The notes: generated by a model from the letters alone, not told the origin. Positions 327 through 18,752 are shown, numbered from the stretch's first letter. The stretch: 64,000 nucleotides of DNA from Clostridia bacterium (GCA_017397175.1 JAFQKA010000001.1:8266-72265), one strand, 5' to 3'. A program made the numbers and translations.

Positions 327-1103
327 TTAGCAAAAATCCTTCCTCATTTGCTCAAGGGCGTATTTTTCAAGCCTGGACACCTGAGCCTGTGAGATCCCGA
401 TCTCCTCGGCGATCTCGGTCTGTGTCTTGTTGCCGAAAAAACGCAGCTTGATGATCCTTTGCTCTCGTTCACCCAATTTTGCCATAGCGTCCTGCAGAGC
501 AATGTTTTCAAGCCAGGTCTTGTCGCCGCCGTCCTCGTCACTTATCTGATCCATGACGTAAATGGAGTCTCCGTTTTCCGAATAGACGGGATCGTAGAGG
601 GAAATGGGTTCAACGATCGCCTCCATGGCGCGTATCACCGCTTCTCTCGGTTCGCCTAATTTCGCGGCGATCTGTTCTACTTTTGGCTCGGACTGATTTT
701 CCCGCATCAGCTCCTCGCGGACGGTCAGGGCGCGATAGGCAAGGTCGCGTACCGAGCGGCTGACACGAATGGCATTGTTGTCCCTCAGATATCGCCGTAT
801 CTCGCCGATTATCATGGGAACGGCATAGGTGCTGAACCGCACGCCCACCGAGGTGTCAAAATTGTCCACCGCCTTGGTAAGCCCTATGCAGCCCACCTGA
901 AAAAGGTCGTCCAGAACCTCGCCGCGCCCTGTAAAACGCTGGATCACGCTGAGGACAAGTCGAAGATTTCCGTATATGAGCGCGTCTCTTGCCCGTGCCG
1001 ATCCGAGCCGCGCCTGTTCAAGAAGAGTCAGGGTCTCCACGTGAGTCAGAGTTTTCAGCTTTGCGGTGTTCACACCGCAGATCTCAACTTTGTTATAGTA
1101 CAT
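327..1103 (-). CDS. sigG: Sporulation sigma factor SigG (forespore late sigma-70 family factor)
   Basis: 258 aa. The N-terminus MYYNKVEICGVNTAKLKTL and the blocks LRLVLSVIQRF, DLFQVGCIGLTKAVDNFD, STYAVPMIIGEIRRYLRD and GISQAQVSRLEK match my recollection of B. subtilis SigG better than SigF. Confidence 0.9.
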   Translation of the reverse strand: MYYNKVEICGVNTAKLKTLTHVETLTLLEQARLGSARARDALIYGNLRLVLSVIQRFTGRGEVLDDLFQVGCIGLTKAVDNFDTSVGVRFSTYAVPMIIGEIRRYLRDNNAIRVSRSVRDLAYRALTVREELMRENQSEPKVEQIAAKLGEPREAVIRAMEAIVEPISLYDPVYSENGDSIYVMDQISDEDGGDKTWLENIALQDAMAKLGEREQRIIKLRFFGNKTQTEIAEEIGISQAQVSRLEKYALEQMRKDFC

Positions 1104-1196: not shown

Positions 1197-1991
1197 TTAA
1201 AAAAGCTTTGTGTGCTCTCCACCCTTGCATTCCACGAGCTTACCGTCGACCTCGACCCAAACGGAGGTGGCGGAGGGGTTGTAGAGCATGGTGCAGTCGG
1301 CGGACATTTCGCAGCTTCGCAGAGCGGTCACATAATCGTAAATTTCAATATTCGTTGCGTACCAGGTGTCTTCCATACCCTCGGCCGCCGCGCAGAATTC
1401 CTCAATCAGCTCCCAGTTGTTGTCGTTGTTGAACTCATAAGAGTGTCCCCAGACATAGAACAGGTTCAAGGGAAATTTGCTGTTCTTGAAGCGCTCGAGC
1501 TTTTCCATGATTCCTCCCTTGTGGTGGCAAGTGGGATGCCAGAGCATGAAATCATCGGGAAGACCGAAGCCGTTGTGGGACGCTGTTGTGCGGGAGTATT
1601 TCATTCCCATCGAACGGAGGATCTCAACAGAACGGCTGTCGTGAGTGCCGAAGGGATAGGACATTCCGCGCACGACGTAGCCGCAAAGGCTCTCCAAGGT
1701 TTCCTTGTCGGAGATTATTTGGCGTACTACCTCCATATTGGGAACACGCTCAAGGAAGGGGTGTGTATAGGTGTGGCAGGATACCTCGTGACCTATGTAA
1801 AGGGTCGCCACTTCGCAGGGATCTATTTTTCCGCTGTTTTCAAAGGGTCCCGAATTTAAGTGGAAGGTTCCCTTGATGCCGTGAGCGTTGAAGATCTCAA
1901 CCAATCTGCGGTCGTGGATCGTGCCGTCATCGTAGCTCATTGTAAGAGCTTTCATTTTGCCCTGAGGATATCGGTATCCTATTTTTTTCAT
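1197..1991 (-). CDS. Polysaccharide deacetylase (NodB-homology) family protein
   Basis: 264 aa. It carries the NodB-type motifs MSYDDG (Asp pair) and HEVSCHTYTHP (His pair). Confidence 0.8.
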   Translation of the reverse strand: MKKIGYRYPQGKMKALTMSYDDGTIHDRRLVEIFNAHGIKGTFHLNSGPFENSGKIDPCEVATLYIGHEVSCHTYTHPFLERVPNMEVVRQIISDKETLESLCGYVVRGMSYPFGTHDSRSVEILRSMGMKYSRTTASHNGFGLPDDFMLWHPTCHHKGGIMEKLERFKNSKFPLNLFYVWGHSYEFNNDNNWELIEEFCAAAEGMEDTWYATNIEIYDYVTALRSCEMSADCTMLYNPSATSVWVEVDGKLVECKGGEHTKLF

Positions 1992-2978: not shown

Positions 2979-3548
2979 TTATCGGAACTCATCGGCAAGG
3001 ACCGCGCATTTGCCGATGTCGCGGTATTGGCCTTTTATAAGCATTGATCCGCGGGCCACGCCCTCAAACCTCATTCCCATCTTTTCCATGACCCGTCGGC
3101 TGGCGTCGTTGCCCACAATATAGTGAGCCTCGATTCGGTTTAAAAGCAGATTCTCAAAGCCGAATCTCATAATTGCGTGCAGGGCCTCGGGAATGATCTG
3201 GTGACCGCGGTAATCGGGATTCAGAACGTAGCCCACTTCGGCAGAGTCGTTCTCGAAGTCAAAACGGGTAAAGCCGCAAGTACCGATCATCTTGCCGTTT
3301 TCCCGCAGAGTTATGGCCCAGTCGAAAAAGTCCCCTGTGGCATATTTGCCCTCAAGATATTCGAGATAATCCCTCGTGTAGTGAACGCTTGTGTGAGGAT
3401 ACCAGGTCAGATATTTTGTTACGTCCGCGCGGCAGGCGTATTCGAACATATCCTGCGCGTCAGACGGCTCCATGCGGCGAAGAACAAGGCGTGGCGTGTT
3501 CAATTTCGGCATGCGGGAAAATATTCTGTTAATTGCATTTTTGTTCAT
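2979..3548 (-). CDS. GNAT family N-acetyltransferase (RimJ/RimL-like)
   Basis: I moved the start to ATG 3548 (MNKNAINRIF...). The extra 73 codons of the track ORF run through the AT-rich divergent promoter region. The acetyltransferase core is recognisable (LVLRRMEPSDA..., NPDYRGHQIIPEAL). Confidence 0.75.
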   Translation of the reverse strand: MNKNAINRIFSRMPKLNTPRLVLRRMEPSDAQDMFEYACRADVTKYLTWYPHTSVHYTRDYLEYLEGKYATGDFFDWAITLRENGKMIGTCGFTRFDFENDSAEVGYVLNPDYRGHQIIPEALHAIMRFGFENLLLNRIEAHYIVGNDASRRVMEKMGMRFEGVARGSMLIKGQYRDIGKCAVLADEFR

Positions 3549-3711
3549 AGCAGACCTCGGGGGCGTTTCTTTTATTATATTATAGACTTTATTTTGAATA
3601 TTTTCAATAGAATAACGCAAAATTTTGCAAAAATACTGTACAGAGCGATTTTTTTGTGATATAATAAAATGAATATTTATGCCCGTAAATGGAAAAGAAA
3701 AGGGGATCATT

Positions 3712-5559
3712 ATGTGCGGTTTTGTTGGATTTTCCGGCAAGATAGATAGAAAAAAAGAGATAATCAATAAAATGATGGACAGAATAGTTCACCGCGGACC
3801 CGACATGGCGGGTGATTTTCTGTCCGATGAGATAGCTCTGGGCTTCAGACGTCTGAGCATTATCGACCTGTCCGACAGCGGAACTCAGCCTATGACAAAC
3901 GAGGACGGATCTGTTGTTATTACGTTCAACGGCGAGATCTACAACTTCGGTGAGCTGAGAGAAAAGCTGCTTGCCGCAGGTCACGTTTTCAAGAGCGGAA
4001 GCGATACCGAGGTGTTGCTCCACGGCTATGAGGAGTACGGCGAGGGTATAGTTGACATGATACGCGGAATGTTCGCTTTTGTCATCTGGGACAGCAAGAC
4101 CAAAAAGCTTTTCGGCGCCCGCGACCACTTTGGAATCAAGCCATTTTACTACACATTTACCAAGTCGGGCGACATTATCTTCGGCTCGGAGATAAAGAGC
4201 TTTTTGGAACACCCCGACTTTGTGAAAAAGGTCAACAAAAAGGCGCTTCGCCCTTATCTTACCTTCCAGTATTCTTCCATGGAGGAAACATTTTTTGAGG
4301 GTGTTTTCAAGCTCCCCGCTGCCCACTGCTTTACATGGGCACCCGGTGAGAAAATGAATATCCGCCGTTATTGGGACGTTGATTTTTCCGACAGCGACCG
4401 CGATTTTGAGACCCTGAAAAAAGAACTTGACGAGACCGTAAAAGAATCCGTGGCGGCGCACAGAATAAGCGACGTGCGTGTTGGCTCCTTCCTTTCGGGC
4501 GGCGTTGATTCCAGCTATATCACAGCGGCTCTCATGCCCGACGAGACTTTTTCCGTGGGATTTTTCGACTATGAAAAATTCAACGAGACAAACGAGGCAA
4601 AGGAGCTTTCCGACAAGCTGGGGATCAAAAATTTTCGTCGGAACATAACGGCGCAGGATTGCTTTGACAATTTTGCGGACATTCAGTACCACATGGACGA
4701 GCCTCAGTCGAACCCTTCCTCCGTTCCTCTTTATTTTCTTGCCAAATTGGCGCGTGAGCAGGTGACGGTAGTCCTTTCGGGCGAGGGTGCGGACGAGATC
4801 TACGCAGGATATGAGTGGTACGACGAGACCCCCATGATGAGAAAATACAAGAAGCTCCCTGCCTTCCTTCGCCGTTTTGCGGCGGCGGTGGCACGGCGTC
4901 TGCCCTATTTCAAGGGACACGACTTCATTATCAGGTCAAGCGGCCGTCCCGAGGATTATTTCATCGGACAGGCACTTGTATTCCCCGAAAAGGAGGCACT
5001 TTCGGTGCTTTCGAAGGAGTGTCGGAACGCACCCTCAGTAAAGGAGATTACCTCTCCTGTCTATGAGCGTGTAAAAGGGAAGACCGAGCTGCAGAAAAAG
5101 CAGTATCTCGACCTTAACCTCTGGCTTCCCGGCGACATTCTGCTAAAGGCAGATAAAATGAGCATGGCAAGCTCTCTCGAGCTGAGAGTGCCTTTCCTCG
5201 ACCGGGAGGTGATGGCGCAGGCTCAGTCGATACCCGACAAATTCAAGATCGCAAAGGGCACCACGAAATACATTTTGCGCGAGGCATCAAACGAGATCCT
5301 GCCCGACGAGTGGGCAAACAGACCCAAAAAGGGATTCCCTGTGCCGATCCGCTATTGGCTCATGCAGGACGAGTATTACAGACAAGTAAAAGAGTATTTT
5401 GAGGCGGATTTTGCCGCAGAATTCTTTGACCGCAGTGCAATTATCAAATTGCTTGACGAGCACAAGTCGGGCAAGAAGATGAACCAGAGAAAGATCTGGA
5501 CGGTGTTTACCTTCCTTGTCTGGTACAAGAGATTTTTTATTGATGAGAGCGCAAATTAA
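3712..5559 (+). CDS. asnB: Asparagine synthase (glutamine-hydrolysing), AsnB/AsnH-like amidotransferase
   Basis: ATG 3712 gives the obligatory N-terminal Cys2 (MCGFVGF) of class II amidotransferases, and a purine-rich SD lies upstream. The PP-loop FLSGGVDSS is present. 615 aa. Confidence 0.9.
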   Translation: MCGFVGFSGKIDRKKEIINKMMDRIVHRGPDMAGDFLSDEIALGFRRLSIIDLSDSGTQPMTNEDGSVVITFNGEIYNFGELREKLLAAGHVFKSGSDTEVLLHGYEEYGEGIVDMIRGMFAFVIWDSKTKKLFGARDHFGIKPFYYTFTKSGDIIFGSEIKSFLEHPDFVKKVNKKALRPYLTFQYSSMEETFFEGVFKLPAAHCFTWAPGEKMNIRRYWDVDFSDSDRDFETLKKELDETVKESVAAHRISDVRVGSFLSGGVDSSYITAALMPDETFSVGFFDYEKFNETNEAKELSDKLGIKNFRRNITAQDCFDNFADIQYHMDEPQSNPSSVPLYFLAKLAREQVTVVLSGEGADEIYAGYEWYDETPMMRKYKKLPAFLRRFAAAVARRLPYFKGHDFIIRSSGRPEDYFIGQALVFPEKEALSVLSKECRNAPSVKEITSPVYERVKGKTELQKKQYLDLNLWLPGDILLKADKMSMASSLELRVPFLDREVMAQAQSIPDKFKIAKGTTKYILREASNEILPDEWANRPKKGFPVPIRYWLMQDEYYRQVKEYFEADFAAEFFDRSAIIKLLDEHKSGKKMNQRKIWTVFTFLVWYKRFFIDESAN

Positions 5560-5569
5560 GGAGATTATC

Positions 5570-6799
5570 ATGAAAAATACAGACGTAAATATGATCCCCG
5601 TGTTGCTTGGCGGAGACCTTAACAGCTACAACGTGGCACGCGCTTTCCATGAAAAATACGGCGTTATCTCCCACGTTTTCGGACGCTATCCCATAGGTCC
5701 TACAAAAAACTCCAAGATAGTCAATTTCCACGTTGTGAAAAAGATGGACGATCCCGACATTATGGTCACGGAGCTATCTGATTTCGCGGACAAACATCCC
5801 GACGCGCACCTTATTCTGCTTGGTTGTACGGACGATTACGCAACCCTTATCATAAATAATCGCCACCGTCTCGAGTCCCGCTATATCTGTCCTTACATTG
5901 ATCCCGAATTGTCCGAACGTCTGGTCAGCAAGGCAGTGTTTTACGAGATGTGCGACAAATACGGTATTCCTTATCCCAAGACAGTGGTGCTGGACGGGGG
6001 TTTTGCGCCCGAGGATCTGTCTGAGGATGCTCTCGGCTTCAAATATCCCGTTATTGTCAAGCCATCCAGCAGTATTCAGTATTGGAAGCATCCCTTTGAG
6101 GGAATGAAAAAGGTGTATACTGCCGCAGACCCCGACGAAGCGGTAAAGATCATGACGGAGATCTACGGCGCCGGTTATCCCGACAAGATGATCATTCAAG
6201 ATATGATCCCCGGGGACGACGCGAACATGTACGTTCTTACGGCATATTCGGACAGCACGAAAAAGGTGAAGATGACCTGTCTCGGCCACGTTCTGCTGGA
6301 GGAGCACACTCCCCGCGGACTTGGCAACCACGCGGCAATCATCACAGAGCAGAATGGAGATCTGACCGAGCGTTTCCGCGCTATGCTTGACGATCTTTCA
6401 TATGTGGGATTCTCTAACTTTGACATTAAATTCGACCCCCGCGACGGAAGTCTGCGCGCATTCGAGATAAATTTACGCCAGGGACGCAGTAACTATTACG
6501 TAACGGCGGCGGGTATCAATATAGCGGAGCTTCTGGTGGAGGACAGGATCTTCCACCGTGACAGCGAGTACCGTCCGTGTGAAAATTCACACCTGTGGCA
6601 CTGCATTCCCTTTGCGGTGGTGAAAAAATACGTTCATAACCCAAAGGCACTGGCGGATGCCAAGCGATTGAAAAAGGCGGGAAAATCCACCTCGTCTCTG
6701 TGGTATGCGCCCGATCTGCGCTTTAATCCCAAGCGCCTTGTCTGGGTGCTTGAGCACCTGCGCCGACAGCATGGCAAGTACAAAAAATACTGCAAATAA
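5570..6799 (+). CDS. ATP-grasp carboxylate-amine ligase (COG3919-like); candidate D-aspartate ligase
   Basis: Start ATG 5570 follows SD AAGGAG (5558-5563). 409 aa with an ATP-grasp-like layout (IPVLLGGDLNSYNVARAF..., YPVIVKPSSS...). It begins 10 nt after the asnB stop and ends 12 nt before the racemase start. Confidence 0.65.
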   Translation: MKNTDVNMIPVLLGGDLNSYNVARAFHEKYGVISHVFGRYPIGPTKNSKIVNFHVVKKMDDPDIMVTELSDFADKHPDAHLILLGCTDDYATLIINNRHRLESRYICPYIDPELSERLVSKAVFYEMCDKYGIPYPKTVVLDGGFAPEDLSEDALGFKYPVIVKPSSSIQYWKHPFEGMKKVYTAADPDEAVKIMTEIYGAGYPDKMIIQDMIPGDDANMYVLTAYSDSTKKVKMTCLGHVLLEEHTPRGLGNHAAIITEQNGDLTERFRAMLDDLSYVGFSNFDIKFDPRDGSLRAFEINLRQGRSNYYVTAAGINIAELLVEDRIFHRDSEYRPCENSHLWHCIPFAVVKKYVHNPKALADAKRLKKAGKSTSSLWYAPDLRFNPKRLVWVLEHLRRQHGKYKKYCK

Positions 6800-6811
6800 G
6801 GAGTGCTGAAA

Positions 6812-7561
6812 TTGGAAAAAAACAGAAAGCTTCTGGGTATTCTCGGCGGTCTTGGCCCTATGGCGACGGTATATTTCTACGAAATGCTCACGTCGCACAC
6901 AAAGGCGGACTGCGATCAGGAGCATATTGATATTCTGATAAGCTCCCGCGCCTCAACTCCCGACAGAACGGCGTTTATCGTGGGGGCTTCGGGGGAAAGT
7001 CCCATCGGCGCTATGATAGAAGAGGGTAAGCGGCTGCAAAATTGCGGCGTCGATCTTATCTCCATACCCTGCAATACCGCTCACTATTTTTACGACGAGT
7101 TGACTGCGGCGCTTGACATTCCTGTGGTGAACATTCTCCTGGAAACGGCGGCTCACGCCAAGCGCACGGGAGCTGAAACGGTCGGGATCCTTGCCACCGA
7201 GGGCACGGTGAGATCGGGAGCTTACGCTCACGTTTGCCAACAGGTCGGGATCAACTGCATAGTGCCCGACGAGGAGCATCAGTCAATTCTTTCCGACATG
7301 ATCTACGGTCAGATAAAGCAGGGAAAGCCTGCGGACATGAGGAAATTTGAACGCGTGTGCGACCACATGATCTCACGGGGCGCAGACAAGCTGGTGCTTG
7401 GCTGTACCGAGCTGTCACTGATCAAGCGCGACAATGATCTGGGTGATCTTTTCATTGATTCTCTTGAGGTGCTGGCGTGCAGGACTATCGCACTTTGCGG
7501 CAAGGAGCCTGTTGGATTTGATGCGGGTTTGACGGCGGACGAAGACATACTGAAGGCATGA
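6812..7561 (+). CDS. racD: Aspartate racemase (Asp/Glu racemase family)
   Basis: GILGGLGPMAT and both catalytic-Cys motifs (IPCNTAHYF, LGCTELSL) are present. I prefer TTG 6812, which lies 8 nt after SD AAGGAG (6798-6803); the track's GTG 6803 overlaps the SD. Confidence 0.85.
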   Translation: MEKNRKLLGILGGLGPMATVYFYEMLTSHTKADCDQEHIDILISSRASTPDRTAFIVGASGESPIGAMIEEGKRLQNCGVDLISIPCNTAHYFYDELTAALDIPVVNILLETAAHAKRTGAETVGILATEGTVRSGAYAHVCQQVGINCIVPDEEHQSILSDMIYGQIKQGKPADMRKFERVCDHMISRGADKLVLGCTELSLIKRDNDLGDLFIDSLEVLACRTIALCGKEPVGFDAGLTADEDILKA

Positions 7562-8517
7562 AAATTACCCAGCGAGACACAAATCCCTTCAAATTTTCCG
7601 ACACCAACAAGCGCTATCACACATACGATTATTTCATGAAGCGGCGATACGGCGGCAAATGCGCCAAAATTCCCTTGGACGGCGGATTCACCTGCCCGAA
7701 TGTTGACGGAAGATGTGGTGTAGGCGGCTGTATTTACTGCTCGGGACGGGGAAGCGGTGATTTTGCACAGCCTGCCGAAATGCCGATCTCAGAGCAGTTC
7801 AGGATCACGGCTGAAAGCCTTTCGTCGAAATGGAAAACGGACAAATACATCGCCTATTTTCAGGCTCACACAAATACCTATGCGCCCGTTTCGGTATTGC
7901 GCGAAAAGTTTGAGGAGGCTCTCAAAATAAAGGGCGTGGTAGGTCTTAACGTAGCAACCCGCGCCGACTGCCTGCCACCTGACGTGGTCGAATATCTGGC
8001 GGAGCTTTCCAGCAGGACGGATCTCACGGTTGAGCTTGGATTGCAGACGGTAAACGACGATGTGGCGCGTTATATAAACCGCGGTCACACCTTTGAGGAA
8101 TTTTGCGAAGGCTATGCCCGACTGAGGTCGGCAAGTGATAAGATCATGACCTGCGTCCACCTTATTTTCGGTCTTCCCGGGGAAACACCCGAGCATATGC
8201 TTGAAAGCGTGAGACAGGTCGCAAAATTGAAGCCGAACCAGGTGAAGATCCACCTGCTCCACGTAATAGAGGGCACAAAATTGGCGCAGATATACAGGGC
8301 AGGTGAGTACACCCCCATGGACCGTGAGCTTTATATTGAGACGGTCTGCCGGGCTCTGCGCTTACTGCCTGCCGAGACCGTCATCGGACGGTTGACGGGT
8401 GACGGTGCGCCGGACACCTTGCTTGCACCTGACTGGAGCCGGAAGAAGGTAGCGGTTATCAATGACATTGACAAAATGATGTTCGAGCGCAATTGGTTTC
8501 AGGGGGATCAAATATAA
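7558..8517 (+). CDS. TIGR01212-type (YhcC-like) radical SAM protein
   Basis: 319 aa. The N-terminal Cys cluster FTCPNVDGRCGVGGCIYCS and the surrounding pattern are typical of this family. Its ATG overlaps the racemase stop (ATGA at 7558-7561). Confidence 0.8.
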   Translation: MKITQRDTNPFKFSDTNKRYHTYDYFMKRRYGGKCAKIPLDGGFTCPNVDGRCGVGGCIYCSGRGSGDFAQPAEMPISEQFRITAESLSSKWKTDKYIAYFQAHTNTYAPVSVLREKFEEALKIKGVVGLNVATRADCLPPDVVEYLAELSSRTDLTVELGLQTVNDDVARYINRGHTFEEFCEGYARLRSASDKIMTCVHLIFGLPGETPEHMLESVRQVAKLKPNQVKIHLLHVIEGTKLAQIYRAGEYTPMDRELYIETVCRALRLLPAETVIGRLTGDGAPDTLLAPDWSRKKVAVINDIDKMMFERNWFQGDQI

Positions 8518-8523
8518 AAAATC

Positions 8524-8560
8524 AAAAGCACTTATGGCGAGTAGCCATAAGTGCTTTTTT
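8524..8560. terminator. Bidirectional intrinsic terminator
   Basis: AAAAGCACTTATGGC (8524-8538) pairs with GCCATAAGTGCTTTT (8544-8558), followed by a T-run. It lies between convergent genes ending at 8517 and 8573. Confidence 0.85.
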
Positions 8561-8572
8561 AACGATAATTTT

Positions 8573-8809
8573 TTAATCTTCTATGTCCGTAAGCTTTGAA
8601 ACGGTGGTGCCGAGAACCTCCGCGATTTTAAACAGGGTTTTCAGCGATGGGCAGAAAAAGCAATTCGGGGCTTCAAGCTGTGAAATATATCCGGAGGATA
8701 AGTCGCAAGCCTCAGCAAGCTCCTCTTGGGTCATTCCCTGAAGCTTTCTGTAATAAGCGATTTTTAAGCCTATTTTTATCAAATTCATTTTATATTGACT
8801 GTCTGTCAT
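8573..8809 (-). CDS. XRE-family helix-turn-helix transcriptional regulator
   Basis: 78 aa with an HTH_3 pattern (IAYYRKLQGMTQEELAEACDLSSGYISQLE). It starts 20 nt downstream of the AI-2E transporter gene on the same strand. Confidence 0.8.
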   Translation of the reverse strand: MTDSQYKMNLIKIGLKIAYYRKLQGMTQEELAEACDLSSGYISQLEAPNCFFCPSLKTLFKIAEVLGTTVSKLTDIED

Positions 8810-8829: not shown

Positions 8830-10113
8830 TTATTCCTTCGGCTCAATCGTTTTTTTCGGCTTTTCCTTTTTTGCCTTGGGAGGCTTTTTTGCCTTTGGTT
8901 CCTTTTTGGGGCTTTCTTTTTTTGGTGCGGGCGGGGTTTCTTCTTCATCATCCTGAAGATCGGCAAAATCGCAGGCGGGCAGTTTTCCGTCGGCTACCTT
9001 CTTTTCGATCTTTTTTGCCGCGTGTTCCTTGAACAGCTCAAGAATTACCGCAAAGAGAGGAATAAAGAAGATGATTCCTATAATTCCCAGCAGATTGCCG
9101 CCGATAAGCGCGGCAACAAGTGTGTAGAGAGGGGAAAGTCCAACAGCCGTGCCTACCACGCGGGGGTAGATAAGCTGTGTTTCGACAAACTGAACGGCAA
9201 GATAGATGATAAGGCACAAAAGAGCCTTTTCGGGCGCGACCAGCAAAGTCAGGAATACGCTGACAGCGCAGGAAATGAACGCGCCTATGTAGGGAATGAT
9301 GGCGCAGACCGCAGTCAGAACCGCCACAAGGCTTGCATAGGGCATTTTAAAGATCGAAAAGGATATGAATATGAGTACGCCCAGGATCAGCGCCTCGCTG
9401 CACTGTCCGAACAGGAATTTTGAGAATATGTCTGCAAATGAACGGCAGAATCTCAAAATGCCCTTTGCCCACGAGGGCTTCAAATATGCGCCGATCAAGA
9501 GCTTTCCGTGCCTTGCCACGGTTCTTTTTTCAAGAGCCGCGTAGATGGAAATAATTATGGCAAAAAGTGCGGTGGTTACTATATTTATGGTGGAGGAGAA
9601 CACGCTGATGACGTTGACGAAAATAAAGTCCGCGCCTGTTGTCAGCTTGTTTACGATATCCGAGAAGTTGTCCAGAATCGCTTTGAAATTGATCTTGCTT
9701 ACAAGATCCTGTATCCACTGAACGTCAAAATGCTTGAGGCTCAGTTCCTTTATTCTTGCCTCGATCTGGGTGTAAAGCACTTTTACGGAGCTTGTGATCT
9801 CGGGGATAAGCAGTGTCAGTACCAGGGTCAGCACCAGGGCGATGCAAGCCAGGGTGAGAAGGAAGCTGACGATGACGAAAGCCTTTTCCGAGGGCTTTCT
9901 TTTTGCTTTTGCAAACATTCTTTTCAGGATCTTCTGGATCCCGTTCATGGGAACGATGAGAAAAAGCGCGATTATTCCGCCCACGATCACGGGCAGAATA
10001 AGGGTTATAAGTTTACTTGTATAAGATGTGACCGCCGAGAAATTCATGAGCGCGGCGAACAGTACTACGCCCGTTATTGTTACGAGCAGGGCCTTTTTTG
10101 TGTTGATTCCCAT
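8830..10113 (-). CDS. AI-2E (PerM/YdiK-like) family transporter with a Lys/Pro-rich C-terminal tail
   Basis: 427 aa with about 8 hydrophobic segments in an AI-2E-like arrangement. The last ~45 aa are low-complexity (PPAPKKESPKKEPKAKKPPKAKKEKPKK). Confidence 0.75.
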   Translation of the reverse strand: MGINTKKALLVTITGVVLFAALMNFSAVTSYTSKLITLILPVIVGGIIALFLIVPMNGIQKILKRMFAKAKRKPSEKAFVIVSFLLTLACIALVLTLVLTLLIPEITSSVKVLYTQIEARIKELSLKHFDVQWIQDLVSKINFKAILDNFSDIVNKLTTGADFIFVNVISVFSSTINIVTTALFAIIISIYAALEKRTVARHGKLLIGAYLKPSWAKGILRFCRSFADIFSKFLFGQCSEALILGVLIFISFSIFKMPYASLVAVLTAVCAIIPYIGAFISCAVSVFLTLLVAPEKALLCLIIYLAVQFVETQLIYPRVVGTAVGLSPLYTLVAALIGGNLLGIIGIIFFIPLFAVILELFKEHAAKKIEKKVADGKLPACDFADLQDDEEETPPAPKKESPKKEPKAKKPPKAKKEKPKKTIEPKE

Positions 10114-11286: not shown

Positions 11287-12954
11287 TTATTTGAGATTGT
11301 CTCCGTAGCGTTTGATCTTTTGAGTTGTGGTTCTCTCGAGAGGCGAGGTGAGGATATCGAATTTCTGAATCTTCTTATATGCGGGGACGGCGTCGTTTAC
11401 CGCGTTTACCGCGTCGGTGACAGCCGCCTTGATCTCCTCGGGGGCGGGTGTGTGTCCCAGCTTTTCGGCAAGGTAGGCTTCGGAGGGGTATATCTTGGCT
11501 CTTACGCAGGGGTCGCCGTGGCGATCCTTGCCCTCCAGCACCAGACATTCGGCTATTGCCTCGTTTTCTCCGAGCCTGTCCTCGATCTCCTCGGGGAAAA
11601 TGTTCTTGCCGTTTGCGGTGACGATGACGTTTTTGATCCTGCCCTTGATATGAACTCCGCCGTTTTCGTCGATGAAGCCCAGGTCTCCCGTGTGGAACCA
11701 GCGGTTTTTGATCACCGCCGCCGTAGCTTCCTCGTCGCGGTAGTAGCCGAGCATTACGTTGTCACCCGAGGCTATTATCTCGCCCACTCCGTTCTCGTCG
11801 GGATTGGCGATTCGCAGAGTTACGCCGGGAATTGCACAGCCTGCGGTCTCCGGATCGTAGAAGAAATCGTTGTTTGCGGAAAGAATGGGAGATGTCTCGG
11901 TGAGTCCGTAGCCCTGTATAGTTTTAATACCAAGGGCGTTGAAATCCTCGATGAGTGCAGGGTCGATCGCCGCCGCACCGACCACCATCATTCGCAATTT
12001 TCCGCCAAGGCTCTTTTTGACGTTTGAGCAAATGACCTTTCTTACAAAGAAGGGCAGAGTGCCGAGCGCCTCGGCCAGAGACAGCTCGTCAAAGGCCTTT
12101 TTGTATTTCTGCGGACATTCCTTTGCGATAGCCATGCGAAGTCGTTTGCTGAGCACCTTGAGAAGTGCGGGGACGACCACAAGCACCGTGTTGTTGTATT
12201 CTTTGAGATTGGTTGCAATGCGGTTAAGACCGTCGCAATAGGAAATACAAGCCCCTCTCGCCAGAACGCAGAGCATATCTATGGTCGCGGCATAGGTGTG
12301 GTGCAAGGGCAGGATCGAGAGCACCTTATCCGTGGTGTAGACCCGAATGACCCTCAGGATCTGATGGACGTTTGAACATACGTTGAACTGAGACAGGCAA
12401 ACTCCCTTTGAAGAGCCCGTGGTGCCCGAGGTAAAGATGAGGATCCTCATCTGATCGGGGGGATAAGTGTAGGAATTTATCCTTTGAAGATCCCGAGGGG
12501 TGTATTTTATGGGACGATCGGGAATTTCGGAAAGGTCGTACACACAGTCGAAACGGCGAACTCCCTCAAGCTTGCCCTGAACCTTTTTGTCAGCGCAAAT
12601 AGCAGTGCAATCCGCCGCATCGCAGAAATCGGCGATATCGCGGCCGGACAGCTCCTTATCTATTGGAACGACCACGCCGACGGTAGCCGCCGCCAGGTAG
12701 GCGATCGCCCACCCTCCGCTGTTTTCGCCGCTGACGGCGATGCGCTTGCCCTCAAGTCCGTGACGGATAAAGGACGCGCACAGGGATATATATATTTCAT
12801 ACAACTCCTTGTAGGAGATATATCTGTATTTTCCCGCAGAGACCTTCAGCTGAAGCGCCGCTTTGTCACCTGCTTTCTCGACTGAGTAGGCCAGAAGATC
12901 CCTGAAGCAGTCAAATCGGGGTACGTTATAGTAAGAGGTCGTTTGTGTTTTCAT
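11287..12954 (-). CDS. AMP-dependent acyl-CoA synthetase/ligase (long-chain fatty acid-CoA ligase-like)
   Basis: 555 aa. The AMP-binding motifs TSGTTGSSKGV, QGYGLTE and WFHTGDLG are present. Confidence 0.85.
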   Translation of the reverse strand: MKTQTTSYYNVPRFDCFRDLLAYSVEKAGDKAALQLKVSAGKYRYISYKELYEIYISLCASFIRHGLEGKRIAVSGENSGGWAIAYLAAATVGVVVPIDKELSGRDIADFCDAADCTAICADKKVQGKLEGVRRFDCVYDLSEIPDRPIKYTPRDLQRINSYTYPPDQMRILIFTSGTTGSSKGVCLSQFNVCSNVHQILRVIRVYTTDKVLSILPLHHTYAATIDMLCVLARGACISYCDGLNRIATNLKEYNNTVLVVVPALLKVLSKRLRMAIAKECPQKYKKAFDELSLAEALGTLPFFVRKVICSNVKKSLGGKLRMMVVGAAAIDPALIEDFNALGIKTIQGYGLTETSPILSANNDFFYDPETAGCAIPGVTLRIANPDENGVGEIIASGDNVMLGYYRDEEATAAVIKNRWFHTGDLGFIDENGGVHIKGRIKNVIVTANGKNIFPEEIEDRLGENEAIAECLVLEGKDRHGDPCVRAKIYPSEAYLAEKLGHTPAPEEIKAAVTDAVNAVNDAVPAYKKIQKFDILTSPLERTTTQKIKRYGDNLK

Positions 12955-13050
12955 TTGTGACCGTTCCTTTCATTGGTTTGAATTGTGGCATCCGTCGGGT
13001 GCGGAGCTGCCGTGCAAGGTCGGAGCAATTTTGCTCACGTTACCTATGTA

Positions 13051-13083
13051 ATTATAACGCAAACTTGTTGAAATGTCAACAAG
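13051..13083 (-). promoter_or_regulatory. Consensus sigma-A promoter of the acyl-CoA synthetase gene, with an overlapping 8-4-8 palindrome (candidate operator)
   Basis: The minus strand reads TTGACA (13079-13074), 17 nt, TATAAT (13056-13051). A perfect inverted repeat CTTGTTGA-AATG-TCAACAAG (13064-13083) covers the -35. Confidence 0.6.
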
Positions 13084-13150
13084 AAGCTGTTTGCCGAAGA
13101 AAATATTTACCATATTTTAACTTTTGGCACAAAAAATGAAAACAAGACGA

Positions 13151-13654
13151 TCAGAAGCTGCTGATTGGCAGATCCTCGTTGTCTTCTCCCTTTTCGACCG
13201 ATTTTACAACGACGACAAATGAGCGGTCGGGAGTGACCTGAACCGTCACGCGATCCCCTGCCTGTTTGCCCAGCAGGGCTTTTCCCAAGGGGGATTCACG
13301 GCTTATAAAGCCCTTTGTGGCGTCCTGGCGGAGGGTCGTGACGATCTGGATCTTTTTCGTCTGACCGTTCATTTCGTAGAAAAGCTCGACGTAGTCAAAA
13401 AGTCCGATCTTGCCCTCGTCACCGCCTACCTCGACCACCTTGGCGGTGGCTATCATGTTTTTCAGATAGCGTATGCGGCTCTCGTTGCGGTTTTTCTCCC
13501 GCTTTGCTTCCTTATATTCGGCGTTTTCGCTGAGATCTCCATACTCGCGCGTGCGCTTGACCTCCGCCAACAGCTTGGGGCGCAGTTCTTTTGCGCGGTA
13601 GTCTATCTCCTCTTGCATTTTCTTTATGTCTACTGCCGTAAGCTCGTTATGCAT
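13151..13654 (-). CDS. greA: Transcription elongation factor GreA
   Basis: 167 aa. The coiled-coil N-terminal domain carries GDLSENAEYKEAK, followed by a GreA/B C-terminal domain. Confidence 0.9.
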   Translation of the reverse strand: MHNELTAVDIKKMQEEIDYRAKELRPKLLAEVKRTREYGDLSENAEYKEAKREKNRNESRIRYLKNMIATAKVVEVGGDEGKIGLFDYVELFYEMNGQTKKIQIVTTLRQDATKGFISRESPLGKALLGKQAGDRVTVQVTPDRSFVVVVKSVEKGEDNEDLPISSF

Positions 13655-13706
13655 AGCTTGATTCCTTTCATATTATGTGTTTTTTCTTCAAAAAAATTCG
13701 CTTTTG

Positions 13707-13738
13707 AAAAAAACAGCGGCGGTATGCCGCTGTTTTTT
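13707..13738 (-). terminator. Intrinsic terminator after the DUF4340-like gene (end of ABC operon 1)
   Basis: Stem ACAGCGGC (13713-20) / GCCGCTGT (13726-33), flanked by an A-run and a T-run. Confidence 0.8.
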
Positions 13739-13746
13739 GATTTATA

Positions 13747-13768
13747 GGCTCCCTCCCGGAGGGAGGCT
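13747..13768. repeat. GC-rich palindrome CTCCCTCCCGGAGGGAG (copy A of a short repeat family)
   Basis: AGGCTCCCTCCCGGAGGGAGGCTTT. The same core recurs at 40905-40926 and 41096-41119, always in intergenic DNA. Confidence 0.7.
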
Positions 13769-13791
13769 TTGGTTGCCATAATGCAATTTAA

Positions 13792-15339
13792 TTACTTACC
13801 TGATGCAAAGATCTCTTCGCCTGCCTGCAAAAGCTTGGCATCGTTTACCAGCTTGTCGGGCATGGTGCGAAGTACGAAAAATTCGCCTACGCCGTTCAGC
13901 GTAACGTAAGAGCGGCGTTCGGAATACTGATAGAATCGGTAGGTCAGTTCTCTCCCCGTTTCGGTAACCACGGTCAGCACAAGCTGTGCCTCGCTGTCGT
14001 CAAGTGCCTTGAAGGTGTCCATTTCCTCGCGGGTAAGACTGCAGTTGCCCTCGTAGGAGGTGACAAGCAGATTCCAGTAATAATTTCGGAACTGAGGGGT
14101 GGAGAGTACCTTGCCTGTTGCGCGGTCGGTAACCACCAGGTCCTGTCCCTCGCCCGTCAGGTCAAAGTCAGCCTTGTAGCTTCCGCTTCTTACGGAGACC
14201 GAATCGACGTAATCTATCTTCATCTGGAACATAGGGGATTCTACCCAATCAAAAAGGGTCCAGTTGATGAAAAACATTACCTCGGAGTCGATCAGATCTA
14301 TCTGGTCAAACAGAGTGGAGGCAACGTAGCAGGAGCCGTCCTCGTTTGGGGGACTGATAACGATGAAGTTTTCGTGTCCCCGGTAGAAGAAGCGCATTGA
14401 ATAGCAGTTGTCCCGGTCGATATTGAACTGCGCCAGCTTTTCGTCGGTGATGCCGAGGGCTACCACCTTCATGTGATCCTCCATCTCGGCGGTGTAAAGT
14501 GCGTTCATAGCCTTTGAGATGGCGGTAGACGAAGGCACAAGTCCTGCGGGATAGATCATTTCGTAGGTTACGGTTTCGTATTCGGTTCCCTCTCGGTCGG
14601 ACTGCTCAACGTAGTCCAGGTGGAAGATCATGTCCTTACCCTTCATGAGAACCAGGTCATGGACCATGAAATAGTCGTTTTGGTTCATGGGGGTGATGAC
14701 CATGGGGAACACGATAGACTCAACGGTGGAAAGGAGAGTAGTCTCTACGGATTTGTCGACCACGTAGACCGAATCAGGTCGGCCAAGGTACTTAAAATAG
14801 TATCCGTTGCCCGTGGGGATAGGGTGACCGATAAGACATTCGTAAATTCTGTATTCATAGTCGCCGCCGTCGGTTTTATGACGGGTCTTCATGGTGAATT
14901 TTGCGGGCTTGTAGAGTGTTCCGTCCTCAAGTGTTTGCTCCTCGAAGCCGTAGTCCTCGCCCTCGACCACGTTTACACGGGTGATTGCAAGAGGATAAGT
15001 GCAGCTTGACATAAGTGAGGTAATATTTTCCTCGTGGACTGCAATTCCCTCAAAGCCTGCTATCTGTGGCTGCCAATCCTCGTCTCTTGTCATTTCGTAG
15101 CTTCCGTGCTCGTTTTCCACCTTGATTGAAACGACGTCCTTGTTTTCAAGTCCGTCGTAGACCACGACCTTGGTGGCCGCCATTCCAAGACCCTCGCCGT
15201 CCTCGGGAACTACCGTTTCGAGTCCGCCCGTTTCCACAGGCTCAATGGCGGTAAAGGGCTTGATGACCGCAAAATATGCGATCATCATTACAAAGGAAAC
15301 GGCGAACATGACGATGGTAGCAATTAGCTGTTTTCTCAT
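13792..15339 (-). CDS. DUF4340-like membrane-anchored protein (operon 1)
   Basis: 515 aa with a single N-terminal TM anchor (IATIVMFAVSFVMMIAYFAV) and a large extracytoplasmic domain. It overlaps the upstream GldG-like gene by 4 nt. The family call comes from architecture and context. Confidence 0.55.
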   Translation of the reverse strand: MRKQLIATIVMFAVSFVMMIAYFAVIKPFTAIEPVETGGLETVVPEDGEGLGMAATKVVVYDGLENKDVVSIKVENEHGSYEMTRDEDWQPQIAGFEGIAVHEENITSLMSSCTYPLAITRVNVVEGEDYGFEEQTLEDGTLYKPAKFTMKTRHKTDGGDYEYRIYECLIGHPIPTGNGYYFKYLGRPDSVYVVDKSVETTLLSTVESIVFPMVITPMNQNDYFMVHDLVLMKGKDMIFHLDYVEQSDREGTEYETVTYEMIYPAGLVPSSTAISKAMNALYTAEMEDHMKVVALGITDEKLAQFNIDRDNCYSMRFFYRGHENFIVISPPNEDGSCYVASTLFDQIDLIDSEVMFFINWTLFDWVESPMFQMKIDYVDSVSVRSGSYKADFDLTGEGQDLVVTDRATGKVLSTPQFRNYYWNLLVTSYEGNCSLTREEMDTFKALDDSEAQLVLTVVTETGRELTYRFYQYSERRSYVTLNGVGEFFVLRTMPDKLVNDAKLLQAGEEIFASGK

Positions 15340-16874
15340 GCACGCTTTCTCCTTACGTAGATGATGGCGATGCCCGAGATGAATACTACTGCAGCAGGAA
15401 TGATAGCGAGCATAGCTGTGGTGGTTTTGGCATCCGATGCCGTCAGGCTTTCGATCTGAGTTGTAGCAAAGGGCTTTCTTCCCACGTCAAGATAAACCAC
15501 CTCTTTTTGCATGATCCTCATCATGGAATAGAGGGATTCGCTGTTTCCGTAGACGTTGGAGGTAAGCTGCTGACCTGCGGCAAAATCAATAGAACCGCTG
15601 ACCATAACGTAGGAGTATTCTGTGGTTGTGGAGTTGCCCACCTGTCTGCCCTGTGTGGTGATGGTGAGCAGGGGGATCTTATTGTATTTATCCGCTTTCT
15701 GAACGGTCTGCTGATTTGCCTCGACAAAAGCGTCTGCACTTGTTACGAAGATGTCGTTTATCTGTCTTGTGATGCCGTTTGAGGAGTAGTAGCCGTTCTG
15801 ATCATAGCTGTCGGAATGGCGCAGGGGCATAGCGTCGGGGAAGATGATCTTTGGTGCTGTGCCTGCGTTTGTCAGGTCTTGATTTACCTGTGTTCCAAGG
15901 GTTCCCTCGCCCGTTACGTACTCGGCAACAACGTTGTAGTTTGCATAGTCGATCGAGTGAGAGGGGTCCTTTACGATGCCTGCGCTGAGACGGTTGTTTT
16001 CGTCCGCATATCTTCCGAACTCAACGCCCCACTCGTACATATATTCCTCAAGGTTGGGGAGCACGGGGGTGCTGGGAGAAACGAAGAGCATGAATGCATT
16101 GACACCGTCAAGGAAGGCTTCAAGCTTGTCTATCTCGGAGATGTCAGAGCCTGCGTCCTTCTTTGTGAGAAAGTCGGAGGTGGGGTTGTAGCATACCATC
16201 AGACGGCAATCCTGAGGGATCTCGTCCTTTGACAGGTCGATAAGCTCGTAATCGTAGCCTGCGTTTGTGATAAGTTCAAGCAGGTGGATATCGGTCACAG
16301 CCTCACCGTGGTTGGTAAGCACCGCACAAACGGGAGCCTCCGCACGGGTGACGGCGATGATGGTGGAAGCAAATTTTGCCTCGGCGTTGTAAGCCCATAC
16401 CACGTTCTGGTTGTTGAATGTAAAGAAGGATTCGAGGGCGAGCTGTCTGAACTCGCTTCCGCTTTCGATGATAACGTCGGTGGTCTTGATATTGGTCGTT
16501 GCCGTGGTCTTATATTTGCTGACAGCCGAGCGGTTGTCGATGATATTTACCGTCTCAACCTTTACGTTCTTAAGCTTTTTCTGAAGCTGGAGCGCTGTGT
16601 TGTAAACGAGACGGGAGGTGTTGGTGTCATTGAGCGTATCGGGGTCGGAGCAGAAGAGGATCTTTACTTCCTTGTCGATATCCTTGAGAAGATCGATGCA
16701 CTGATCGGAGACGGTGTAAAGCTCCTCGGGTGTCATGTCAATATACCAACGGAACTTTTCCGCAAATGCGGAGAAGACCACGTTGAAAACGATAACGAGA
16801 GTAATAAACGCCGCTGTAAGTGCTACGGAGATCCCGCCGTAGCGCAGCTTTTTGTTTTGATTGTAGCTTTTCAT
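15336..16874 (-). CDS. GldG-like ABC-transporter auxiliary protein (operon 1)
   Basis: 512 aa. N- and C-terminal TM anchors flank a large external domain, which is the architecture of COG3225/GldG-type proteins. It directly follows the ABC-2 permease. Confidence 0.65.
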   Translation of the reverse strand: MKSYNQNKKLRYGGISVALTAAFITLVIVFNVVFSAFAEKFRWYIDMTPEELYTVSDQCIDLLKDIDKEVKILFCSDPDTLNDTNTSRLVYNTALQLQKKLKNVKVETVNIIDNRSAVSKYKTTATTNIKTTDVIIESGSEFRQLALESFFTFNNQNVVWAYNAEAKFASTIIAVTRAEAPVCAVLTNHGEAVTDIHLLELITNAGYDYELIDLSKDEIPQDCRLMVCYNPTSDFLTKKDAGSDISEIDKLEAFLDGVNAFMLFVSPSTPVLPNLEEYMYEWGVEFGRYADENNRLSAGIVKDPSHSIDYANYNVVAEYVTGEGTLGTQVNQDLTNAGTAPKIIFPDAMPLRHSDSYDQNGYYSSNGITRQINDIFVTSADAFVEANQQTVQKADKYNKIPLLTITTQGRQVGNSTTTEYSYVMVSGSIDFAAGQQLTSNVYGNSESLYSMMRIMQKEVVYLDVGRKPFATTQIESLTASDAKTTTAMLAIIPAAVVFISGIAIIYVRRKRA

Positions 16875-16886
16875 TTTCTGCCTCCT

Positions 16887-17645
16887 TTAACCCCAGCGTC
16901 TCTTGTCGTAGACGCGGACAGTAGCGAAAACGAAGACGCTGCAAAGGGAGATGTAGTAGAAGATGGCGGCAAAATCGAACTTGCCTGCGCTGAAGTTCGC
17001 AAAACGGCTGAGAACGTTGAACCAGTCGATAACGAAACGAACCGCATAGCTTGAGATTATTGCCTCGTTGTTAATAGAAGCGGGTGCAAGCATTGCAACG
17101 AGCGTTGCAATGGTAATAACTGCCGCGGCAAGCTGATTTTCCGTCAAGGTCGAGATGAACATACCCACGGCTATGAAGACCGCGCCGATAAACAGGATTC
17201 CCACAAGAGAACCGAGGATCTGTGCGTCAGAGGGGCCGATGTGAATGTAATTTGCCTGCTGACCTGCCTCACTTCTTTCCATGGCGGCAACCGCATAAAG
17301 GGGAAGGAAGTTGATGCAGGATATGATGATCGAAGCGGCGTACATAGTGAAGGCCGCAAAGTATTTTCCCAGCACCATAGAGGTGATCGAAACGGGTGCG
17401 GTGAGAAGCATCTGTTCGGTGCGGAGTTTTTTCTCCTCGGCAAAGAGCTTCATGGTAAGCAGGGGAATGAGTACGACCAGCACCAAAATAAGCATACTGA
17501 AATAGTTTGAGGTGCTGTACGTGTTAGAGATAAGCGTCGTATAGCAGAACAGCAGAGCGGATATGGCAAGGAAGATTCCGATATACACGTATCCGATTGC
17601 GTTGATGAAATACGAACGCAGTTCCTTTAAGTATATGGCGAGCAT
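16887..17645 (-). CDS. ABC-2 type transporter permease (GldF-like, operon 1)
   Basis: 252 aa with six hydrophobic segments, between the ATPase and the GldG-like gene. Confidence 0.8.
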   Translation of the reverse strand: MLAIYLKELRSYFINAIGYVYIGIFLAISALLFCYTTLISNTYSTSNYFSMLILVLVVLIPLLTMKLFAEEKKLRTEQMLLTAPVSITSMVLGKYFAAFTMYAASIIISCINFLPLYAVAAMERSEAGQQANYIHIGPSDAQILGSLVGILFIGAVFIAVGMFISTLTENQLAAAVITIATLVAMLAPASINNEAIISSYAVRFVIDWFNVLSRFANFSAGKFDFAAIFYYISLCSVFVFATVRVYDKRRWG

Positions 17646-17675
17646 TTATCTGTTTTCCTTTCTTTCTGCGTCCTG

Positions 17676-18752
17676 TCAGTCGTCCCGACGGTCAAAGATG
17701 CTTTTTGCGGCAGACTTTTGGGACTGAGCGGTCTTTTCCATGATTCTGGCGGCAACGTCACGCTCGGCATCGGCTCCGCGTTTTACCCGACTGTTTTTTG
17801 CCTTATCGTTCTTTTTCTGACCCTGTGCGTCAACGATGGTGATGAAGATGTCCTCAAGGCTCATGCCCAGAGATTCAAGACCGATAAGCGGCCAGCCGCG
17901 CTCGGCCAGCGTATAGAAAAGTGTCTTGCGGATGTCGATTCCCACGTCGCTTTCGATCATGTAGGTGAAGGCGTCGCCGTCACGCTCTGCCAGAGGCTCG
18001 GCATAAACGATGCCCGGCTTTTCACGCAGCATTGCCAGCACCTCGCGCTGAGGACCGCAAATTTTGGCGCTGAAGCGGCGGCTGGTCTCAACGGCGCGTG
18101 TGATATTCTCTGTCTTTTCGTCCGCTACGATCTGACCTTTGTTGATGATAATGATTCTGTCGCAGACCGCCTGAACCTCCTGCAGAATGTGGGTAGAGAG
18201 AATGACCGTGTGGTCACGTCCCAGGTTTCGGATCAGGTTTCTGATCTCGATTATCTGCTTTGGGTCAAGTCCGATGGTAGGCTCGTCGAAAATAATGACC
18301 TTGGGGTTGCCGATAAGCACCTGGGCGATGCCCACGCGCTGCTTATATCCCTTTGAAAGGTGGCCGATGAGCTTGTGGTAAACGTCCTTTATCTTGACCA
18401 CCTCGCAGATCTCGTCGATGTGCTTTTTGCGGTCGAGACGACAGCCCTTGAGATCGTAAGCGAAATCAAGGTATTCCTTTACCGTCATATCAAAATAGAG
18501 AGGGGGCTGCTCGGGCAGGTATCCTATTCTCTTTTTTGCCTCGAGGGGCTTTGCCAGAATGTCGATGCCGTCGATCTCAATGCTTCCGGCGGTGGAGGAC
18601 AGGTATCCTGTCAGCATATTCATGGTGGTACTTTTTCCTGCGCCGTTGGGTCCCAGGAATCCTACGATCTCGCCTGCGCCCACCTCAAAGGAGATGTCGT
18701 CAACGGCTGTGAAATTGCCGTAGGTTTTTACCAGATGTTCGATCTTAATCAT
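17676..18752 (-). CDS. ABC transporter ATP-binding protein (GldA-like, operon 1) with a ~55-aa Lys/Arg-leaning C-terminal tail
   Basis: Walker A GPNGAGKST, signature LSKGYKQR and Walker B IIFDEPT are present. The tail reads QGQKKNDKAKNSRVKRGADAERD... Confidence 0.9.
   Translation of the reverse strand: MIKIEHLVKTYGNFTAVDDISFEVGAGEIVGFLGPNGAGKSTTMNMLTGYLSSTAGSIEIDGIDILAKPLEAKKRIGYLPEQPPLYFDMTVKEYLDFAYDLKGCRLDRKKHIDEICEVVKIKDVYHKLIGHLSKGYKQRVGIAQVLIGNPKVIIFDEPTIGLDPKQIIEIRNLIRNLGRDHTVILSTHILQEVQAVCDRIIIINKGQIVADEKTENITRAVETSRRFSAKICGPQREVLAMLREKPGIVYAEPLAERDGDAFTYMIESDVGIDIRKTLFYTLAERGWPLIGLESLGMSLEDIFITIVDAQGQKKNDKAKNSRVKRGADAERDVAARIMEKTAQSQKSAAKSIFDRRDD

Follow-up and report, generated by a model that had tools for sequence, protein, structure and literature searches.

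What do three tightly packed genes for an AsnB-type amidotransferase, an ATP-grasp protein and a two-Cys racemase do together in an uncultured, spore-forming gut member of the Clostridia? The genes lie on one strand at 3712-7561 of a 64,000-nt stretch from Clostridia bacterium (GCA_017397175.1 JAFQKA010000001.1:8266-72265), hereafter called the window, and a preliminary description made from the sequence had proposed that they supply, ligate and amidate D-Asp for a peptidoglycan cross-bridge. The analysis supports this proposal, and with a probability of about three in four we see in the three genes a module for peptidoglycan side chains (cross-bridges): D-Asp from a RacD-type racemase would be attached by an Asl-type ligase and then amidated by an AsnH-type enzyme. 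What is directly established is the structure of the genes, their predicted folds and catalytic motifs, the homology and the conserved linkage; the substrates and order of reactions would follow by analogy with the literature (PMC4155827, PMC13631041). The result is a well-supported annotation and not a new mechanism, and the arrangement is widespread in gut Clostridia.

The analogy is with lactic acid bacteria. AslA adds D-Asp in Lactococcus lactis and in most lactobacilli, racD sits in the aslA operon, AsnH amidates the bound D-Asp, and Latilactobacillus curvatus uses RacD, AslA and AsnH (PMC4155827, PMC13631041). As in the Aslfm/Racfm pair of Enterococcus faecium and the AslA/RacD pair of L. 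lactis (EC 6.3.1.12), the ATP-grasp ligase of the window adjoins a two-Cys Asp racemase, but the window differs from both in its order, ligase then racemase with asnB first, and in its host, a spore-forming member of the Clostridia. The window AsnB resembles AsnH of L. lactis and AsnB1 of Lactiplantibacillus plantarum, which are glutamine-dependent, carry Cys2 and a PP-loop and are linked to peptidoglycan precursor genes; AsnB1, encoded beside murE, amidates meso-diaminopimelate (meso-DAP). According to the preliminary description, asnH of L. lactis reportedly lies apart from aslA-racD, whereas in the window asnB heads the putative operon that also holds the ligase and racemase genes.

The gene structure was confirmed on re-reading the sequence. 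The asnB-like and ATP-grasp genes are separated by a 10-nt spacer, GGAGATTATC, and an AAGGAG Shine-Dalgarno sequence at 6798-6803 overlaps the TAA stop of the ATP-grasp gene, which encodes 409 residues. The racemase likely starts at the TTG at 6812, 8 nt 3' of the Shine-Dalgarno sequence, and the same start was chosen by gene callers on six independent metagenome contigs. A GTG at 6803 was also considered as its start and is unlikely, as it sits within the Shine-Dalgarno sequence. The AsnB-like protein begins MCGFVGF, which provides the Cys2 nucleophile, and has the PP-loop SGGVDSS from residue 262 within a GATase_7 plus Asn_synthase (Pfam) architecture. Both catalytic Cys motifs of the racemase are present (IPC87NTAH and LGC198TE). 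It matches Asp_Glu_race (PF01177, 1.3e-40) and TIGR00035 (210 bits, cut-off 93), falls far below the cut-offs of glutamate racemase models, and is 33% identical to the racemase adjoining the ligase in L. curvatus.

The ATP-grasp assignment had previously been made from context, and can now draw on homology, fold, gene fusions and comparative synteny. The protein has no Pfam match at 1e-3 and no match in a PDB sequence search, and against NCBIfam it gives only a weak CPS-like match of 31 bits. Its family is large nonetheless, with 3830 cluster representatives found at E<=1e-3, of which 384 remain when the threshold is tightened to E<=1e-30. An AlphaFold (AF2) model built with 128 homologues reached a predicted local distance difference test score (pLDDT) of 97.1 and a predicted template modelling score (pTM) of 0.94. 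Foldseek with this model returned 463 PDB matches at E<=1e-3; among the matches listed, all were ATP-grasp enzymes, at 12-17% identity, and they include CPS-like 2pn1, PylC, and the L-amino-acid ligases 3vot and RizA. PylC joins a D-amino acid to the epsilon-amine of Lys. The PDB search found no solved structure of this particular ligase family. The 128 homologues all share K121, K164, Q210 and N301, and conservation of E299 and R303 among them is at least 90%; from general knowledge of the family, these residues would bind ATP and Mg.

Relatives of the ligase at 31-37% identity are called "D-aspartate ligase" by IMG. Homologues from Lactobacillaceae were found by tblastn of the plasmid collection PLSDB, which includes mislabelled chromosome pieces. 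The L. curvatus ligase aligns with 100% of the query at 35.6% identity (E 9e-81) and lies in the order aspS - racemase - "carboxylate--amine ligase"; that of Lactobacillus crispatus is 37.7% identical, with asnB immediately 5' (WP_005718379.1 / WP_005718381.1), and that of Limosilactobacillus fermentum 34.9%. Lactobacillaceae ligases that adjoin racD or asnB match at full length, with 35-38% identity and E from 1e-74 to 1e-81, and in the reverse search the L. curvatus and L. crispatus ligases matched only the gene at 5570-6799 in the window. The endospore-former Ureibacillus terrenus has a 46% identical ligase with a racemase adjoining, and its wall is said, in work from 2001 attributed to Fortina et al., to be of the L-Lys-D-Asp type. 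In two natural fusion proteins (P0137 and P0159), this ATP-grasp domain and an Asp/Glu racemase domain form a single chain. Judged through the Lactobacillaceae orthologues as proxies and the IMG names, the ligase appears to belong to the Aslfm/AslA family.

More distant members of the ATP-grasp family were also observed. Four relatives at 33-37% identity (P0183, P0268, P0203 and P0262) are fused to other domains, namely an N-terminal DegT/DnrJ aminotransferase, a GNAT domain, or DegT together with a C-terminal FemAB, a hint that the family also has members with different ligation tasks in the cell envelope. In Acetoanaerobium noterae (NZ_CP154629.1 1664949-1667414), an ATP-grasp relative (27%) directly adjoins a MurE-like ligase (29%), and this pair suggests that the pairing of ATP-grasp and MurE proteins reaches beyond the D-Asp ligase clade.

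The conservation of the neighbourhood was surveyed, as the preliminary description had proposed. A profile from a 10-sequence alignment was run against one genome per GTDB species, giving at least 589 relatives, from which the best 80 loci were kept; adding a metagenome look-up and PLSDB loci, and removing two duplicates and the window itself, left 86 independent loci. None of the best 80 loci of the genome scan comes from Enterococcus or Lactococcus, and the scan returned no relative above 73% identity. An identical ligase was found only on metagenome contigs of at most 9.6 kb, all with the same gene order. The racemase lies directly 3' of the ligase on the same strand in 67 of 84 loci. AsnB lies within 3 kb of the ligase in 37 of 75 loci overall, comprising all 10 relatives at >=60% identity and 23 of 31 at 50-60% (33 of 41 at >=50%), with the remainder at lower identity. 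The commonest order is asnB-asl-racD-murE, though Subdoligranulum variabile and loci L014 and L020 have asl-racD-asnB, and in Slackia asnB is divergent. Flanking genes vary between loci as well. The variation in both order and flanks speaks for a functional and not an accidental linkage, and the adjacency goes far beyond chance, being met again with differing flanks across dozens of distinct species.

The rarity implied by the preliminary description did not hold up in this survey. All three genes occur together in 27 of the 86 loci, each clostridial or coriobacterial, and 22 loci also include MurE. The adjacency of asnB and ligase extends to L. crispatus, and L. curvatus resembles the window in having the racemase adjoin the ligase; unlike the window and the 27 loci, neither lactobacillar locus unites all three genes. 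The claim that the arrangement is uncharacterised in Clostridia has stood, as literature searches found no description there of this gene arrangement, nor of D-Asp bridges. The closest relatives, at up to 74% identity, are the asnB-asl-racD-murE clusters of uncultured Oscillospiraceae/Eubacteriales, which share the asnB-asl-racD order of the window. An asl-racD-murE version is found in Peptostreptococcaceae (Intestinibacter bartlettii, Terrisporobacter, Peptostreptococcus and Romboutsia). In both groups a MurE with the motif DNPD, DNPN or DNPG directly follows the racemase, where the window has a radical-SAM gene. The five nearest loci (L001 and L006-L009, 71-74% identity) also share a GNAT gene upstream, and as they have murE at the position held by the radical-SAM gene, the window is best seen as a truncated version of a widespread cluster and not as a unique fusion.

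Three further observations concern these relatives. In L001, the 74% relative, ScmC- and PqqD-domain genes and two unannotated open reading frames follow the cluster murE (11497-14128), in what looks like a recognition-type gene set for ribosomally synthesized and post-translationally modified peptides beside wall genes. On the 546-kb conjugative plasmid pl546 of Bacillus mycoides (L093, CP067054.1 23990-25966), a ligase homologue (38.7%) is split into two annotated reading frames and adjoins an "amino acid racemase"; such a copy of the pair may be in decay or mobile. Finally, in Coriobacteriia (Slackia, Collinsella and Eggerthellaceae; L028, L041, L046, L083, L085 and L094) the ligase and AsnB copies share 49-63% identity with those of Clostridia. 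These are closer than the Bacillus or Lactobacillus copies, consistent with transfer of wall genes between phyla.

By analogy with the lactic acid bacteria, the module would work in three steps. The RacD-like racemase would turn L-Asp into D-Asp. The Asl-like ligase would then convert D-Asp into an acyl phosphate at its beta-carboxyl and couple it to the side-chain amine of the position-3 diamino acid in UDP-MurNAc-pentapeptide. Lastly, we propose that the AsnH-like AsnB acts on this precursor-bound D-Asp, whose free alpha-carboxyl would be amidated at the expense of glutamine and ATP, yielding D-isoAsn.

Several points weigh against the D-Asp module, and those specific to one protein are taken below with the alternative that each favours. 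Homology to the characterised Aslfm and AslA is traced through Lactobacillaceae proxies and automatic names. The distant members fused to DegT or FemAB mean that the ATP-grasp family is not functionally uniform. Moreover, for Clostridia of this clade the reading comes from genes and not from wall chemistry. To these are added a window without MurE, the MurE of S. variabile, an AsnB with a generic score that is rarely present near the more distant ligases, and a racemase that passes a cut-off for another substrate.

The alternative that survives best, though we consider it unlikely, keeps the D-Asp side chain and changes its acceptor: with a dedicated non-DAP MurE lacking, D-Asp would be joined to meso-DAP in an A4-gamma-like wall and not to L-Lys or L-Orn. 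NCBIfam MurE models fail to part Lys-adding from DAP-adding enzymes, and we used the DNPR motif and clustering with references instead. DNPR is present in the meso-DAP references, the MurE of B. velezensis and 8g6p, the top DAP-ligase structure, which is annotated as a 2,6-diaminopimelate ligase. Among the Lys-adding references, the motif is DNPA in S. aureus, DDPA in E. faecalis and DDPG in L. curvatus. A MurE-family ligase lies no more than 1.3 kb 3' of the asl gene in 67 of 77 related loci, and none of the cluster-linked MurEs among the related loci examined has DNPR. The motif is DNPD, DNPN, DNPG or DNPA in 41 loci, and a second, more divergent class has E/D-D-P/A-G and, going by bit scores, clusters with the enzymes of E. 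faecalis, L. curvatus and Collinsella.

The window lacks such a gene, as tblastn of its 64 kb found no MurE. The preliminary description had presented the module as a candidate complete one and predicted an A4-alpha-type Lys-D-Asp(NH2) cross-bridge, neither of which the comparison with these loci bears out for this organism; the acceptor could be Lys, Orn or meso-DAP. S. variabile, a cultured member of the Oscillospiraceae, is in the same position: no MurE is linked to its asl-racD-asnB genes, and the one MurE that could be found for this species is of the DNPR type, though its assembly may be only partly in the plasmid collection searched. Against meso-DAP, the cluster includes a DNPD-type MurE in all ten relatives whose ligase is at least 60% identical, and the window organism may encode a non-DAP MurE elsewhere. 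In addition, a DNPR-like motif is not strictly incompatible with Lys, given that the Lys ligase of Thermotoga maritima has DDPR. Within the D-Asp module, L-Lys or L-Orn is the most likely acceptor, as the close relatives suggest.

A further alternative, which we judge quite unlikely, is that asnB is a housekeeping asparagine synthetase that is merely adjacent, so that the ligase and racemase alone act on peptidoglycan and the bridge is unamidated D-Asp. The protein does score as a generic asparagine synthase (TIGR01536, glutamine-hydrolyzing; 535 bits, cut-off 267) and could simply make asparagine; it does not reach the cut-off of the E. coli-type asparagine synthetase B model NF006949 (317.6 bits, cut-off 499). 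Below 50% identity to the ligase, only 4 of 34 relatives have AsnB within 3 kb and the other 30 have none nearby, nor do Ureibacillus and L. curvatus. Above that level, however, the adjacency is retained in 33 of 41 despite shifts in order and strand (upstream, downstream, or divergent as in Slackia), and AsnB also stands beside the ligase in L. crispatus and beside murE in Collinsella. The enzymes that amidate peptidoglycan, AsnH and AsnB1, belong to the same AsnB family.

The relationships of the window AsnB point the same way. In PLSDB its nearest homologue is that of S. variabile (67.5% identity), followed by copies from Collinsella aerofaciens of the Actinomycetota (63%), Planococcus (57.7%), Sporosarcina (53%), and L. 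curvatus and L. crispatus (47%), with Bacillus AsnB at ~42-44%. The Collinsella copy directly adjoins the murE of that organism, with murI near by. Identity of 63% to an actinobacterial copy against ~43% to Bacillus AsnB suggests that this AsnB lineage travels with wall genes, which supports an AsnH-like role without proving its substrate. The hosts of the AsnBs closest to that of the window either have this module or reportedly build bridges of dicarboxylic amino acids. The sequence of an AsnB does not by itself separate amidation of D-Asp from amidation of meso-DAP or synthesis of Asn.

The last alternative is highly improbable: that the product is not a wall side chain but a dipeptide with a D-amino acid or a secondary metabolite (from an ATP-grasp enzyme akin to L-amino-acid ligases and an amide-forming AsnB) or part of CuyB cysteate metabolism is suggested by the Foldseek matches to 3vot and RizA, by sub-threshold matches of AsnB to lasso-peptide and macrolactam cyclase models, and by a racemase that passes the NCBIfam cysteate-racemase cut-off (NF052483 CuyB, 209.9 bits, cut-off 190), but those structural matches share only 12-17% identity, the MurE linkage and the at least 589 species genomes point to core wall metabolism, no cuyA, transporter, precursor peptide or tailoring genes lie near the cluster, and the CuyB model also puts the ligase-linked racemases of Ureibacillus (208) and S. 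variabile (221.6) above its cut-off and L. curvatus RacD (185) just below it, so its label is uninformative and probably over-inclusive. The cysteate-racemase, secondary-metabolite and lasso-cyclase readings were rejected on these grounds. As a separate observation, the racemases at 6812-7561 of the window, 11212-11889 of L081 and 9276-9971 of L088 score 208-222 bits with NF052483, and annotation pipelines may thus be naming likely aspartate racemases "cysteate racemase".

Returning to the D-Asp module, six loci (L047, L056, L057, L059, L065 and L027) have a second MurE, of the DNPR type, a few kb away. They belong to Lachnospiraceae and Peptostreptococcaceae, including Bariatricus, Mordavella and a Romboutsia metagenome-assembled genome, and in each the non-DNPR MurE directly follows asl-racD and the DNPR copy lies further off. 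This layout fits genomes that have a DAP MurE of the housekeeping or cortex type and, in addition, a dedicated non-DAP MurE travelling with the D-Asp genes, and the pairs may represent two wall chemistries, for example the vegetative wall and the spore cortex. Lysinibacillus (Bacillus) sphaericus offers a parallel, being an endospore-former in which a Lys-Asp wall has been confirmed in a published paper. This species differs in belonging to the Bacilli and not to the Clostridia, and the pairing of two MurEs was seen in the related loci and not in the window. Its spore cortex is said to contain meso-DAP, added by a sporulation-specific adding enzyme, and such a dual wall would match the paired non-DNPR and DNPR MurEs of several of the related loci.

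Taken further, and as a tentative possibility that we would not favour on present comparisons of loci, asnB-asl-racD-murE (non-DNPR) may be a four-gene cassette, mobile between phyla, that switches wall chemistry, with the module in the window as its remnant. Spore-forming Clostridia with both the cassette and a canonical DNPR MurE would then build a vegetative wall with Lys/Orn-D-isoAsn and a meso-DAP cortex. The window organism, its linked MurE lost, would either use an unlinked copy or attach D-Asp to meso-DAP, and bridges of the latter type have not been described for Clostridia.

The positions of the three genes, of the features around them and of an example MurE pair are collected below.

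Table 1. Features of the three-gene module and its surroundings in the window, with one example of paired MurE genes from a related locus.
Feature	Position	Strand	Basis or remark
Sigma-70-like promoter candidate: TGTACA, 17-nt spacer, TG-extended TATAAT	3637..3665	+	Consensus scan, 10/12 matches with TG; consensus match only
asnB/asnH-like glutamine-dependent amidotransferase, 615 aa	ATG 3712..TAA 5559	+	Motifs, Pfam, TIGR01536, linkage
ATP-grasp carboxylate-amine ligase, candidate Asl-type D-aspartate ligase, 409 aa	ATG 5570..TAA 6799	+	Fold, homology, synteny
Pyridoxal-phosphate-independent two-Cys racemase, candidate RacD, 249 aa	TTG 6812..TGA 7561	+	PF01177, TIGR00035, Cys motifs
Radical-SAM gene, TIGR01212 (MnmL/YtqA tRNA-modification family)	7558..8517	+	318.7 bits, cut-off 180
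15-bp palindromic hairpin with A-run and T-run flanks, candidate bidirectional terminator	8524..8558		Terminator scan and direct sequence reading
MurE paralogue pair in related locus L065	11948-13468 and 16398-17909		Two-MurE example locus

The promoter candidate lies 47 nt 5' of asnB, inside a 163-nt divergent intergenic region, and the same consensus scan gave a divergent promoter-like site at 3607-3579 that faces the GNAT gene. An Rfam scan gave no match to a riboswitch or leader RNA. At the other end, the radical-SAM open reading frame and the racemase gene share 4 nt (ATGA) at the racemase stop codon, and the candidate terminator hairpin separates it from a convergent 71-aa helix-turn-helix gene (8573-8788, minus). 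The radical-SAM gene adjoins the cluster in none of the other related loci examined. Its junction with the racemase recurs on independent metagenome contigs with the identical ligase. The radical-SAM gene is probably co-transcribed with the three genes while remaining functionally outside the module, and a four-gene transcript, running from the sigma-A-type promoter candidate to the hairpin, is plausible from the layout of these signals.

Other genes of the window were noted in passing. SigG is encoded at 327-1103 (minus; 401.9 bits, cut-off 372), and the host is therefore an endospore-former, as had been supposed. Besides SigG, the nearby sporulation or envelope genes include a polysaccharide deacetylase at 1197-1991 (minus) with weak PdaB/PgdA-like matches. 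The gene divergent from asnB, at 2979-3548 (minus), encodes a RimJ/RimL-like GNAT acetyltransferase (Acetyltransf_3) and is kept 5' of the cluster, at 55-70% identity, in L001, L006-L010, L012, L013 and L040. A further gene, at 8830-10113 (minus), encodes an AI-2E/YtvI-like membrane protein whose C-terminal tail is rich in Lys and Pro. At 15336-18752 (minus) lies a GldA/GldF/GldG-like ABC transporter set, in which every score is below the equivalog cut-offs; the Gld set is named "gliding-motility-associated" in Bacteroidota, and here it occurs in a Clostridia genome.

The interest of the module comes mainly from the breadth of its clostridial distribution and from the paired MurE genes. If the D-Asp reading is true, the textbook meso-DAP direct cross-link would be absent from many uncultured gut Clostridia, its place taken by a D-Asp or D-isoAsn bridge on a stem peptide of the non-DAP kind. 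The groups concerned would be Oscillospiraceae, Lachnospiraceae and Peptostreptococcaceae, with a ligase relative encoded in the species genomes counted above. Predictions would then shift for the host innate immune receptors stimulated by wall fragments, for sensitivity to lysozyme, endolysins and cationic peptides, and for transpeptidase substrates. S. variabile, I. bartlettii and Terrisporobacter are cultured carriers in which these predictions are testable. For metagenomes, the ligase together with a MurE in which the arginine of DNPR is replaced would provide a simple genomic marker of wall chemotype.

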